Assembly (NCBI GenBank): GCA_965202805.1
Contig: OZ241869.1
Span: 1,952,001-2,016,000 of the forward strand
Direction of reading: 5' to 3'
DNA from: Longimicrobiales bacterium
GTDB taxonomy: Bacteria > Gemmatimonadota > Gemmatimonadetes > Longimicrobiales > Gaopeijiaceae
DNA length: 64,000 nucleotides
The number at the start of each line of letters is the position of its first letter. The first letter of the stretch is position 1. The position numbers were made by a program, and so were the translations under genes. The notes under the pieces are model-generated. The model did no database searches. It saw nothing but the letters and a program-made list of their open reading frames with translations, and was not told where the DNA came from. This document shows, piece by piece, positions 60,681 through 61,820 of this stretch.

Positions 60681-60714
60681 GTAGCTCTCGATTATTGCAT
60701 TAATCGAGAGCTAC
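60681..60714 (+). other. lox-like recombination site 1 (34 bp)
   Basis: GTAGCTCTCGATT-ATTGCATT-AATCGAGAGCTAC: 13-bp perfect inverted arms (extendable to 14) around an asymmetric spacer. Confidence 0.9.
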
Positions 60715-60773
60715 GGAGTGTGAAAGTTGTGACCCCGGGCTCAGGGCGTCAACCTCGGTCGTGATCCGGCCCG

Positions 60774-61751
60774 TCACGCGCGTCTCTGGAGCCGCGCGAG
60801 CTGCGCCGCTCCGTTGCGCTGCGGCAGCAGGCGTTCGCCGTAGCGCTGGACCATCGAGGCGCTCCTCCAGCGGCCGGCCTGCATGATGGCCGGGACTCCG
60901 ATCCCCGAGGCGATCATGTCCTGCGCCGCCCCCACGCGGGGGCTGTGCCCGGCGATCCGGCCGACCTCGTCAGCGGAAAGCCCCGCGCGTTCGGCCATCG
61001 CCTTGTAGATGCGCGGCACCTGGCTCTCGGGCAGCGCGCCCCCGAGCGTGCCGTTCCTGCGGACCGAACGGAACAGCGGCCCGGCGCCGATCCCGCCCGC
61101 GTCGAGCCAGTCCCGCACCAGCCTGACGGTGTCGCGGTGCAGGTACAGCATCGCGCCGGCGCCCTCGGGATCGGTCTTCGCGCGGCGCACCAGGAGCGAG
61201 GCCGATCCGCACCTATCCGTATACAGGTCATTGACTTGGAGCGCCACCAGCTCGGACCGGCGAAGCATGGCGTCGTAGGCCACGGCGAGCAACGCGCGGT
61301 TGCGCGCGTCGATCGTGCGCTCGCCCGCGGCGTCGATCAGGCGCCGCCGCAGCGTCCAGGTCAGGCCCAGCGCCTGCGCCGGGCGGCACGCGTGCCGGCG
61401 GCAGACCCGCTTGAGCGCGCGCCGCACCGCCGCGCGCTCGGCGGGGCTCGGCTCCCCGGCCGAGCGGTGCGCGCTGGCGATGCTCGACAGGTAGCGCCGC
61501 ACGGTGCCCGGCGTTCGGCCGGCCGCCGCCGCCTCCTCGATGTAGGCGGCCACGGTGGCGGCGCGCGCGGGCAGCGGCCGGACTCCGCGCTCGGCGCACC
61601 ATGCCGCAAACCGGGCGAGATCCGACCTGAGCCCGCGCACGGTGTGGACGCTGAGGATGCCCTCGGCGGAGTCGAGGCAGGCATCGAATTGTGACCATTT
61701 CGGATCGGGCGCCGGACGCGCGGACACGGGGTCCGAGCCCCGAATCGGCAT
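60774..61751 (-). CDS. Cre-like tyrosine recombinase
   Basis: GGGAGG RBS; core-binding domain (FAAWC...TVRRYLSSIASAH); MLRRSEL (R), RRAKTD (K), GHSPRVGAAQDM (HxxR), QAGRW (W), MVQRY (Y), closely paralleling Cre GHSARVGAARDM...QAGGW...VMNY. Confidence 0.93.
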   Translation of the reverse strand: MPIRGSDPVSARPAPDPKWSQFDACLDSAEGILSVHTVRGLRSDLARFAAWCAERGVRPLPARAATVAAYIEEAAAAGRTPGTVRRYLSSIASAHRSAGEPSPAERAAVRRALKRVCRRHACRPAQALGLTWTLRRRLIDAAGERTIDARNRALLAVAYDAMLRRSELVALQVNDLYTDRCGSASLLVRRAKTDPEGAGAMLYLHRDTVRLVRDWLDAGGIGAGPLFRSVRRNGTLGGALPESQVPRIYKAMAERAGLSADEVGRIAGHSPRVGAAQDMIASGIGVPAIMQAGRWRSASMVQRYGERLLPQRNGAAQLARLQRRA

Positions 61752-61786
61752 AAGTGCCTCCCTTGCAAGGATATAGGCCAAAAAAA

Positions 61787-61820
61787 GTAGCTCTCGATTA
61801 ATGCAATAATCGAGAGCTAC
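61787..61820 (-). other. lox-like recombination site 2 (34 bp), exact reverse complement of site 1
   Basis: GTAGCTCTCGATT-AATGCAAT-AATCGAGAGCTAC on the + strand. Confidence 0.9.

Follow-up and report, generated by a model that had tools for sequence, protein, structure and literature searches.

A Cre/lox-type cassette that appears to act as a DNA flip-switch in many marine, largely sponge-associated bacteria

What does a Cre-like recombinase do when its own gene lies between two inverted lox-like sites, with a sensor gene on one side and a surface-protein gene on the other? This question is raised by a locus near the end of a 64,000-nucleotide stretch of a Longimicrobiales genome (hereafter the window). 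We find that the 1140-bp unit, sites included, is probably a self-contained and reversible site-specific inversion cassette set between a surface-protein gene and a sensor gene. Inversion is supported by sequence comparison between genomes, while the genome from which the window comes is known in a single assembled orientation. Similar cassettes occur in many other genomes, and on sequence grounds the unit appears to be a natural DNA flip-switch common to many marine, largely sponge-associated bacteria.

Anatomy of the cassette

The lox-like sites are exact inverted copies of each other (Table 1). Both of the 34-mers that a first-pass annotation had described are present, and the inverted arms and asymmetric core that it had reported resolve into a 13-8-13 layout, fixed by comparison with relatives. 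An inverted-repeat search returned the pair as 35 nt (60680-60714 and 61787-61821) with 100% complementarity and 1072 nt between. Each site alone is a near-palindrome (94-95%). The spacer is nearly symmetric, with only positions 2 and 7 breaking the symmetry, and this could weaken directionality.

Table 1. Features of the cassette and its flanks, by position in the window
Feature	Position	Strand	Details
Hybrid sensor histidine kinase/OmpR-type response regulator	58187..60523	-	778 aa; Pfam, NCBIfam
Direct repeat GTGAC-N6-GTGAC	60643..60658	-	11-bp period; on the sensor side, starting 23 nt beyond site 1
Lox-like site 1	60681..60714	.	13-nt arm, 8-nt spacer ATTGCATT, 13-nt arm; at the recombinase 3' end
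Single GTGAC half-motif (outward: GTCAC)	60729..60733	+	Inside the segment, 19 nt from site 1
Cre-type tyrosine recombinase	60774..61751	-	325 aa; catalytic R164, E167, K192, H269, R272, W295, Y304
Conserved TATATC/TATGTC box	61770..61775	-	About 25 nt upstream of the recombinase ATG
Lox-like site 2	61787..61820	.	Exact reverse complement of site 1, spacer included; at the recombinase 5' end, toward the surface-protein gene
Conserved leader	61830..61886	+	Ribosome-binding site AAGGAGGAG, ATG at 61843, about 15 codons
Large secreted surface protein	62110..64000	+	Signal peptide, three Cadherin-like beta-sandwich repeats; continues past the window end

A chance origin of the arm matches is excluded. 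The 14-nt arm has four exact copies in the window and six matches with up to two mismatches, compared with 0.08 expected, and none of 100 shuffles reached this count. Across the whole 4,020,862-bp genome, the full site (up to three mismatches) is found in these two places only, and a reversed control pattern does not occur at all. A shufflon or other multi-site system is ruled out by the presence of only two sites here and by four multi-copy genomes, in which sites occur almost only as such pairs.

The enclosed segment holds little besides an intact tyrosine recombinase gene, as the first reading had claimed: the ORF leaves non-coding stretches of 59 bp and 35 bp at the two ends. Counted from a TTG codon, the ORF spans 60774-61781 on the minus strand; the ATG at 61751 is taken as the start because close homologues begin there. 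On the minus strand, site 2 is followed by a run of seven Ts, and a terminator scan flagged it as terminator-like.

Judged by sequence and predicted fold, the enzyme belongs to the Cre-type tyrosine site-specific recombinases. Among PDB sequences, the best phmmer match is Cre (E 2.5e-31, residues 29-314 against Cre 33-333), compared with 6.3e-4 for XerD. The proposed Cre-type catalytic set is borne out, since all seven residues align with those of Cre (residue list taken from PMC10250229). All 78 intact homologues, down to 54-57% identity, keep these residues (R, E, K, H, R, W, and Y) unchanged. When an AlphaFold model (mean pLDDT 74) was searched with Foldseek, all matches listed through rank 31 were Cre or its engineered variant Tre (E 2e-14; 27-30% identity), ranking ahead of Xer. 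The global TM-score is low (0.47), which reflects a different placement of the two domains in the model. Among phage proteins, P1-type Cre matches best, at 30.2% identity. The target also has Cre-type form, with 13-nt inverted arms around an 8-nt asymmetric spacer in a 34-bp site beside the gene.

Other identities were rejected. NCBIfam scores for XerC, XerD, and XerA reach 32-41 bits against cut-offs of 220-335. A Hin-type serine invertase is incompatible with the Pfam domains, which are Phage_integrase (4.3e-16) and a SAM-like N domain (3.6e-06) only. A phage origin for this copy was likewise discarded, as viral contigs yield just seven distant relatives (31-49% identity).

The neighboring genes are those expected from the first-pass annotation. 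Its sensor-regulator on the left is a hybrid protein with GAF, PAS, HisKA, HATPase_c, REC, and Trans_reg_C domains, whose gene follows that of the recombinase on the same strand. Its adhesin on the right carries Cadherin-like repeats in Pfam. The leader that precedes the surface-protein gene is common to relatives whose surface-protein genes diverge after it, and 55 of 70 positions in the leader-side flank are identical in the closest metagenomic relative (L107).

Short motifs are locked in position beside one of the sites. The OmpR-type output domain may bind the direct repeat on the sensor side. A shorter form of this repeat, GTGA-N7-GTGA, is found in the window and in 25 of the 53 loci with paired 13-8-13 sites, at nt 22-24 in 24 of these; on the other-side flank it is found in 1/53. 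Within the segment, GTCAC lies no more than 35 nt from the inner end beside the 3'-side site in 34/53 loci (19-20 nt in 31), compared with three of 53 at the opposite inner end. Given these position-locked motifs, a helper protein may take part in recombination. Upstream of the recombinase, the box gTATnTCnTTG keeps the same place across the Longimicrobiales-type loci listed. It may represent the -10 element of the recombinase promoter, with the -35 in the inner arm of site 2.

A family of cassettes in two orientations

The cassette belongs to a large multi-copy family spread across phyla and is not the one-off element that the first reading had taken it for. We assembled 79 related loci from public MAGs labeled as several phyla. 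At least 65 of these have an inverted site pair around the recombinase gene, so that homologs flanked by paired palindromes do exist. The pairs comprise 53 with the 13-8-13 layout, 1058-1468 bp apart; 11 in which exact inverted repeats of 15-32 bp flank the gene, several of which have a 9-nt spacer; and one (L049) with an IS element inside. No site pair was recognized in 14/79 loci, of which two are cut by the record end and several have one site. Almost all of the 13-8-13 pairs (52/53) match better as inverted than as direct repeats. Arms and spacers differ from locus to locus, and the 212 half-sites of the 53 loci give 29 different inner 10-mers. Family-wide, at least 1651 cluster representatives were found at E ≤ 1e-20.

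The usual module consists of a divergent gene for a large, variable surface protein, the site-recombinase-site cassette, and often a hybrid kinase/regulator gene. We find an ORF of at least 450 aa diverging from the recombinase gene in 46/79 loci (a 47th that was counted, in L065, is the sensor itself). The divergent ORFs that were sampled carry Cadherin-like, Calx-beta, fn3, SWM, Big_5, or LRR domains. A hybrid histidine kinase/response regulator gene is present in 44/79 loci, and in 41 a sensor homologue occupies the same position as in the window, on the recombinase 3' side. One contig alone holds six of the 79 loci.

Among cultured bacteria, the closest homologues are carried on plasmids of Methylobacterium, Methylorubrum, and Lichenicola (41-45% identity). 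These belong to the same protein family, but have one lox-like site, approximately 40-80 bp upstream, without an inverted partner within 3.5 kb. The site is clear in pCMU01 of M. extorquens CM4, where it shares the CGATA...TATCG inner motif, and weaker in pMNOD02. The plasmid genes also differ in their neighbors, which are toxin-antitoxin and IS genes. Two viral contigs similarly have a single lox-like site upstream of a recombinase relative. None of the seven outgroup loci examined has the inverted pair.

Both orientations of the segment exist among relatives. A search for opposite-orientation homologs, as the first-pass annotation had proposed, returned five flipped loci with breakpoints inside the sites. 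In L107 (recombinase 88.7% amino acid identity, segment 87.8% nucleotide identity), both flanks have the same order and direction as in the window and the segment is reversed. Between L050 and L057, the segment is collinear (92%), and the outer flanks have traded places in reverse-complemented form (96.6% and 88.4%), with inversion junctions that fall inside the 34-bp sites. Further flipped loci are L049, L065, and L081. Thus, flips with junctions at the sites are seen in at least four unrelated lineages. The suggestion that a Cre-type enzyme inverts a segment holding its own gene gains support from these comparisons between genomes (L107, L050/L057, L049/L065, and L081). The anatomy of the locus, the conservation of its arrangement and catalytic residues, and the two orientations with breakpoints in the sites are established here.

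Orientation is strongly biased: the flipped state is found in 5/80 public loci and in none of six further loci from the same genus, counts that are not independent, as loci within a genome are related. Three flipped loci show decay, including L049, where the IS element lies between a site and the recombinase gene. Only sensor remnants persist in L107, and L050 and L057 have truncated sensors. Judging from these loci, the flips may be rare accidents.

Twenty-four public sequencing runs were found, all as k-mer contigs, and four were compared with the window. Contigs (k=31) of the two best runs end inside both sites (60685-60709 and 61792-61816). A 34-bp inverted repeat accounts for such ends at this k-mer length, so these contigs carry no readable orientation.

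Proposed mechanism and competing explanations

In the mechanism that we propose, the Cre-type recombinase would bind both 34-bp sites, as Cre binds loxP, and recombination would flip the 1072 bp between them, recombinase gene included. The outcome would be inversion because the asymmetric spacers point in opposite ways. As the sites are exact inverted copies, the same sequence would lie upstream of the recombinase in either state; the enzyme could therefore be produced in both, which would make the switch reversible. Its two neighboring genes are both directed away from the cassette. In the present orientation, the recombinase gene and any read-out from its 3' end face the hybrid sensor/regulator gene, and in the flipped orientation, they would be directed into the surface-protein gene. 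Most likely, the present state is OFF or low for the surface protein and the flipped state is ON. From the arrangement of the locus, we infer that cassette orientation controls surface-protein expression, that is, phase variation. Likewise, we infer from sequence that the cassette's own enzyme carries out the inversion, that inversion takes place within populations, and that it affects transcription.

Promoter evidence differs among subfamilies. A scan of 60450-62250 detected no sigma-70-like promoters. Among the 53 loci, many of them paralogues, the outward promoter-like score favors the 3' end over the 5' end in 33, is equal in 10, and is lower at the 3' end in 10. The window's own subfamily lacks this asymmetry or shows it reversed, and L028 and L029 score 7 (3') against 8-9 (5'). 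In the 13 alphaproteobacterial-type loci, the 3'-side site directly adjoins a TTGAC motif (TTGACA or TTGACC), and four Poriferihabitaceae loci have TTGACT-17-TATTCT at the segment 3' end. In several loci, the surface-protein start codon is 24-47 bp from the site, which leaves those loci without room for a separate promoter. At the window's locus, the distance from site 2 to the ATG preceding the signal peptide is 289 bp, a gap in which an independent surface-protein promoter is possible. We hypothesize that a split promoter could exist, with its -10 in the spacer and its -35 on the segment.

A primarily selfish or mobile nature of the cassette is unlikely; in that case, its lox-like ends would serve for moving or swapping between modules, and inversion would be a by-product without regulatory role. 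Such a unit would fit the several copies per genome (six of the 79 loci on a single contig) and the spread of the family over MAGs labeled as different phyla. It would also fit near-identical cassettes in one genome with different outer flanks, where homology stops at the outer edge of the site (L033 and L041), and the presence of AlpA-like and TraG/VirB4-like genes beside some loci. Furthermore, copies within a genome share spacers, making recombination between modules chemically possible. However, the neighbors are not random, with a surface-protein gene on the 5' side (46/79) and a sensor on the 3' side (41/79), and whole-module duplication fits this better than cassette insertion. Orphan sites are almost absent from the four multi-copy genomes, and the window's genome has one copy and two sites only. 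Inverted sites are also unable to release a circle, and neither an empty site nor a target-site duplication was seen.

Somewhat less probable still is a recombinase co-opted as a DNA-binding regulator or insulator. The sites would then serve mainly as operators flanking the recombinase gene, and the few flips would be rare accidents caused by the enzyme or by homologous recombination between 34-bp repeats. The strong orientation bias and the decay of several flipped loci are consistent with this, as is the overlap of site 2 with the likely recombinase promoter and its minus-strand resemblance to a terminator hairpin and T run. Pure binding, however, does not need the seven catalytic residues that are invariant in 78/78 homologues. 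Spacers are inverted and matched within pairs but different between loci, as strand exchange requires, and flip junctions coincide with sites in at least four unrelated lineages.

A leftover plasmid or phage dimer-resolution system (like Cre/loxP in P1) without a present chromosomal role is very improbable: the nearest cultured relatives are indeed plasmid genes (41-45% identity) with a single upstream lox-like site, but resolution requires directly repeated sites on a dimer, the inverted pair is kept in at least 65/79 loci against 0/7 outgroup loci, and the gene is intact with conserved residues. A self-contained inversion cassette thus remains our preferred explanation.

Known switches and biological meaning

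The cassette combines features of several known systems. Cre-type sites have a 13-8-13 layout, with a single site near the gene, and the set of such systems comprises Cre/loxP of phage P1, Dre, Vika, Nigri, Panto, and eight newer members, according to PMC10250229. Our cassette resembles Cre/loxP in its fold, its catalytic set (including the Trp), and a 34-bp target with an 8-nt asymmetric spacer beside the gene. It differs in being only ~30% identical to Cre, and in its two inverted sites around a chromosomal gene. Its neighbors here are surface-protein and sensor/regulator genes, whereas those of Cre-type systems are phage or plasmid maintenance genes.

Hin/hix, which governs flagellar phase variation in Salmonella, uses a serine recombinase that requires an enhancer and Fis. 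It shares with the cassette an invertase gene within the inverted segment and short inverted sites at the ends, and in both, a surface-structure gene would be expressed in just one of the two orientations, from an outward promoter close to one end. Unlike Hin/hix, the cassette has a Cre-type tyrosine recombinase, full lox-like sites, and a candidate output gene on either side. The FLP/FRT system of the yeast 2-micron plasmid is eukaryotic, with long inverted repeats and a role in copy-number amplification. There, too, a tyrosine recombinase gene lies between two inverted targets of 13-8-13 type and the region is inverted, but the cassette is a bacterial chromosomal module beside surface-protein genes.

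In the fimS (FimB/FimE), Bacteroides, and Clostridioides switches, the inverted segment spans a few hundred base pairs between short inverted repeats and does not include the recombinase gene. They resemble the cassette as small invertible elements upstream of a surface-structure gene, acted on by a tyrosine recombinase, and in their populations one orientation is dominant. In the cassette, by contrast, the recombinase gene itself makes up the segment, and a complete palindromic 34-bp site stands at each end. The cassette would be an invertible switch of a known sort in a new form, built from a Cre/lox-type system.

The openly accessible literature that we searched, including PMC10250229 and PMC10469786, does not describe a recombinase gene with flanking inverted lox-like sites, and a switch with a Cre/lox-type enzyme whose own gene is inside the flipped segment is absent from it. 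Nor do these sources report that sponge symbionts invert DNA.

The family is also of interest for engineering, as every member brings its own site pair and enzyme and target are known together. The 29 half-site cores among 53 loci and at least 1651 cluster representatives provide candidate orthogonal Cre-type systems. The family is also a data source on how Cre-type enzymes read DNA.

The module, present up to six times per contig, is common to phyla of uncultured marine bacteria, many with sponge-associated names, and the cassette directly fronts large surface proteins of cadherin, fibronectin, LRR, and Calx-beta type. Such surface proteins are thought to mediate host contact. Surface variation by DNA inversion in these symbionts thus becomes testable. 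A more far-reaching reading, which we regard as possible though doubtful, is a signal-gated DNA memory switch. The hybrid kinase/regulator would bind the position-locked GTGAC repeats that bracket the recombinase-distal site and set the timing or direction of flipping, sponge symbionts would toggle host-interaction surface proteins, and the family would form an enzyme-site library. If this is true, the library would comprise well over a thousand natural Cre/lox-type pairs, with sites known from the gene flanks, and several phyla of sponge-associated bacteria would toggle individual eukaryote-like surface proteins by means of up to six independent switches per genome.

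The lox-like sites and the recombinase between them

The recombinase gene is enclosed by two lox-like sites in opposite orientation. The first-pass annotation had claimed two exactly inverted 34-mers, and both are present. A repeat finder extends the match to arms of 35 nt (60680-60714 and 61787-61821), which are 100% complementary and 1072 nt apart, and each site by itself is near-palindromic. Comparison with relatives gives a 13-8-13 layout; the window's spacer is ATTGCATT, with asymmetry confined to positions 2 and 7. We find four exact occurrences of the 14-nt arm in the window, against 0.08 matches expected (up to two mismatches). 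Across the 4,020,862-bp single-contig genome, the site is restricted to these two copies (up to three mismatches), and a reversed control pattern has no occurrence. The sites have a G+C content of 41%, and the surrounding DNA is visibly G+C-rich. Site 2 and the seven-T run after it are flagged as an intrinsic-terminator-like hairpin that would act on transcripts coming into the segment from the side of the surface-protein gene; many relatives have T-rich tracts at the same position.

Features of the cassette and its surroundings (window coordinates)
Feature	Position	Strand	Size	Basis
Methyltransferase and ATPase genes left of sensor	53608-57826	minus	623 aa; 829 aa	
Hybrid two-component protein, single polypeptide	left of cassette, recombinase-downstream	minus	778 aa	Pfam, NCBIfam
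Site 1	60681-60714		34 nt	
Cre-type tyrosine recombinase	ATG 61751, end 60774	minus	325 aa	ORF scan, homologue starts
Terminator-like hairpin	61785-61822	minus		
Site 2	61787-61820		34 nt	
ORF entering surface-protein gene	61843-62109	plus		
Large secreted protein, Cadherin-like repeats	right of cassette, past window end	plus, divergent		Pfam

Non-coding DNA in the segment is limited to 35 bp at one end and 59 bp at the other. The recombinase start codon comes just after AGGGAGG and is shared by close homologues. Pfam detects Phage_integrase (4.3e-16) and a SAM-like N domain. Of the solved structures, Cre matches best by a wide margin (E 2.5e-31, residues 29-314; XerD 6.3e-4). Foldseek, run on a structure model built from 31 family members (mean pLDDT 74), lists nothing but Cre and Tre, an engineered Cre variant, down to rank 31 (E 2e-14, 27-30% identity); Xer proteins come next. 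No NCBIfam model matches at its cut-off; an Xer identity is rejected, with Xer models at 32-41 bits against cut-offs of 220-335. In alignment, R164, E167, K192, H269, R272, W295, and Y304 are the counterparts of Cre catalytic residues, which, E167 aside, is the Cre-type set that had been proposed. All seven are invariant in 78 of 78 intact family proteins, a count outside which the broken L079 and L080 proteins stand. Judged by sequence, protein and site together form a Cre-type system.

The sensor-regulator expected on the left is there, with GAF, PAS, HisKA, HATPase, receiver, and OmpR-type DNA-binding domains. The adhesin named on the right stands in the broader form of a predicted large secreted protein, its signal peptide coming after an ATG at 62110. 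A strong ribosome-binding site and ATG at 61843, 23 nt from site 2, are in frame with it. The ORF starting there (cf. L016:6139 onward, a related locus) enters the gene 89 codons before the signal peptide, and its first ~15 codons are conserved in the own-genus genome G011 and in the metagenome contig L107; it could encode a leader peptide or provide an alternative start. Left of the sensor lie a C-5 cytosine DNA methyltransferase and a protein with two GHKL-type ATPase domains (HATPase_c_3 and HATPase_c), which may be a restriction or defence pair.

Extent of the family and its paired sites

Seven of the 41 own-genus genomes searched, this one included, hold full-length homologues (57-93% identity), at 12 places in all; here the recombinase is present in one copy. 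A scan of one genome per species gave 79 loci, all in MAGs, labelled Longimicrobiales, Candidatus Palauibacter, Latescibacterota, Vicinamibacterales, Candidatus Poriferihabitaceae, Poribacteria, Caldilineaceae, Candidatus Foliamicus, and several Alphaproteobacteria. Up to six loci share a single contig. In the protein database, the family counts at least 1651 cluster representatives (E <= 1e-20), none with more than a generic name. Relatives of the window stretch are contained in a sponge-metagenome run (X4), and PMC10469786 reports abundance of Palauibacterales in sponges and marine sediments.

A strict 13-8-13 scan detects sites on both flanks of the gene in 53 of 79 loci, 1058-1468 bp apart. 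The inverted comparison beats the direct one in 52 of these pairs; in the exception (L099), the arms have diverged and the spacers are still inverted. Among the 26 loci left over, a seed-based search adds 11 with exact flanking inverted repeats (15-32 bp), and in L049 the pair is split apart by an inserted IS element. Thus, at least 65 of 79 loci have an inverted pair around the recombinase gene; the 14 without a recognised pair include two cut by the record end and several with one site. Arms and spacers vary between loci and are matched within each pair: there are 29 different inner half-site 10-mers in 212 half-sites, and 25 different spacers. Some spacers have 9 nt instead of 8 (L060, L062, L070, L073-L076; e.g., CGATA ACTGGTAGT TATCG). 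What the family conserves is the pairing and inversion of the sites.

A degenerate site pattern finds 13, 6, 5, and 11 sites in four multi-copy genomes, nearly all in ~1.1-kb pairs, with no sign there of a multi-site shufflon. The exceptions are a small number of single sites and one pair spaced at 3955 bp (G041:C3:1335320-1339300), where the invertible segment either is enlarged or carries an insertion.

The module has a recurrent layout. With the recombinase on the plus strand, a large minus-strand gene usually has its start codon near the first site, which is followed by 35 bp and the recombinase; about 50 bp later comes the second site and, in many loci, a hybrid sensor/regulator gene. This gap is ~300 bp in alphaproteobacterial and Poriferihabitaceae types. 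A divergent ORF of at least 450 aa lies beside the recombinase in 46 of 79 loci (leaving out L065, whose ORF is the sensor itself), and a sensor homologue is found in 44. The divergent proteins scanned carry Cadherin-like, Calx-beta, fn3, SWM-repeat, Big_5, LRR, or He_PIG domains, and some have no Pfam match. The window, both G011 copies, and G017 (also own-genus) share 89-93% identity from ~115 bp past the sensor stop to 66 bp past site 2, beyond which they diverge.

Several own-genus loci have an AlpA-like regulator gene after the surface-protein gene (L015:9427-9951, L022:941-1492, L027:5701-9271), and L027 additionally has small membrane proteins and a TraG/VirB4-like ATPase. From these neighbours, some modules may lie at the edge of conjugative or integrative elements. 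Residues 38-246 of the window's surface protein (62221-62847) share 91% protein identity with L091:2850-3476, from a MAG labelled Alphaproteobacteria whose recombinase is 56% identical to the window's. This looks like recent cross-phylum transfer of the surface-protein gene, or its 5' part.

Orientation of the segment among relatives

Relatives in the opposite orientation, which the first-pass annotation had suggested looking for, do exist. Metagenome contigs scanned with the window's site yielded one contig, L107, whose recombinase is 88.7% identical to the window's. Its segment aligns to the window in reverse (87.8% over 1163 bp). Beyond its 3'-side site lies the window's surface-protein-side flank, forward (55 of 70 positions, ribosome-binding site and ATG included), and beyond its 5'-side site the sensor-side flank (36 of 60 positions), with minus-strand sensor remnants. 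With a reversed segment between matching flanks, the window's element type therefore occurs in both orientations in nature.

The sensor lies downstream of the recombinase on the same strand, as in the window, in 41 of 44 sensor-linked loci, and upstream on the opposite strand in three (L049, L050, L065). L050 and L057, from different MAGs, have collinear segments including both sites (92% over 1144 bp) and swapped, reverse-complemented outer flanks (96.6% over 385 bp, 88.4% over 370 bp); compared base by base, the partner switch falls inside the 34-bp sites. L049 and L065 are 99% alike. An all-against-all outer-flank comparison equates the 3'-side flank of L081 with the 5'-side flank of L089, L098, and L099 (89%). 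In total, five of the 80 public loci have the flipped orientation, spread over at least four unrelated lineages, and three of the five are partly decayed. Six further own-genus loci (the window, G017, three in G001, and G010) all have the common orientation, and public k-mer contigs covering the locus end within both sites. Such a marked preference for one orientation is compatible with a switch mostly resting in one state, and with rare events too.

Two flipped loci have further peculiarities. Between its upstream site and recombinase ATG, L049 carries a Mutator-family IS (L049:2560-3992, 435-aa transposase) for which a 9-bp alignment overlap suggests target duplication; the element may have locked the switch. 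A Calx-beta protein (>1297 aa) lies past its downstream site. L065 and L079, on one chromosome record, share a recombinase and sensor N-terminal region (98.6-99.4% identical) in opposite relative orientation, one copy being cut by the record start and the other having a broken recombinase gene.

Possible effects on expression, possible sensor control, and origin

With the two sites being exact inverted copies of each other, both states have the same DNA upstream of the recombinase ATG. A gTATnTCnTTG box conserved there, ~25 nt ahead of the ATG, is a candidate -10 element for the gene. The recombinase could then be expressed in either state, which would make the switch reversible.

In 22 of 53 loci the outward-read spacer is ACTACAAT or ACTACAGT, and TACAnT-like words of a similar kind occur in other spacers; all of them resemble a -10 element. 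Directly against the 3'-side site, the 13 alphaproteobacterial-type loci have a TTGAC motif (TTGACA or TTGACC). The main Longimicrobiales group has TTGCCG at a distance of 3 nt from this site, and 4 Poriferihabitaceae loci have TTGACT-17-TATTCT just within it. A simple outward-promoter score is higher at the 3' end than at the 5' end in 33 of 53 loci (10 ties, 10 reversals). In several loci, the surface-protein start codon is just 24-47 bp from the site, leaving no room for a private promoter. This suggests that transcription of the surface-protein gene is confined to the flipped state, in which the segment turns its 3' end toward that gene. Against applying this reading to the window, a tool scan of 60450-62250 found no promoter-like site; its subfamily (L028, L029) has no such score asymmetry; and site 2 is 289 bp from the signal-peptide ATG.

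The sensor-side flank carries a direct repeat, GTGA-N7-GTGA (11-bp period), in the window and 25 of 53 paired loci. In the window and in all but one of those 25, it begins 22-24 nt beyond the 3'-side site; opposite-side flanks have it in 1 of 53. Within the segment, 34 of 53 loci have a single GTCAC no more than 35 nt from the inner end beside the 3'-side site, 31 of them at 19-20 nt; the other inner end has one in 3 of 53. OmpR/PhoB-type regulators bind sites like 11-bp direct repeats. Since the adjacent gene encodes such an output domain, it is plausible that the sensor acts on the switch.

Among cultured bacteria, the closest relatives are encoded on plasmids of Methylobacterium, Methylorubrum, and Lichenicola (41-45% identity). 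A short way upstream of its gene, pCMU01 has one lox-like site that shares the inner CGATA...TATCG motif, and weaker single sites occur in pMNOD02 and two viral contigs. A second, inverted site is present in none of the seven outgroup loci examined; thus, the paired arrangement looks derived from a single-site, resolution-type system.

The closest known system in design is Hin/hix, where the invertase gene is likewise located within the inverted segment. FLP/FRT shares a gene flanked by inverted target copies, whereas tyrosine-recombinase promoter switches have the enzyme gene outside a short element. In the open-access full-text literature searched, we found no description of a recombinase gene flanked by inverted lox-like sites, nor of inversion switches in sponge symbionts. 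Invertible switches and Cre-type systems are already known; the novelty would lie in their arrangement, a Cre-type gene within its own inverted site pair.
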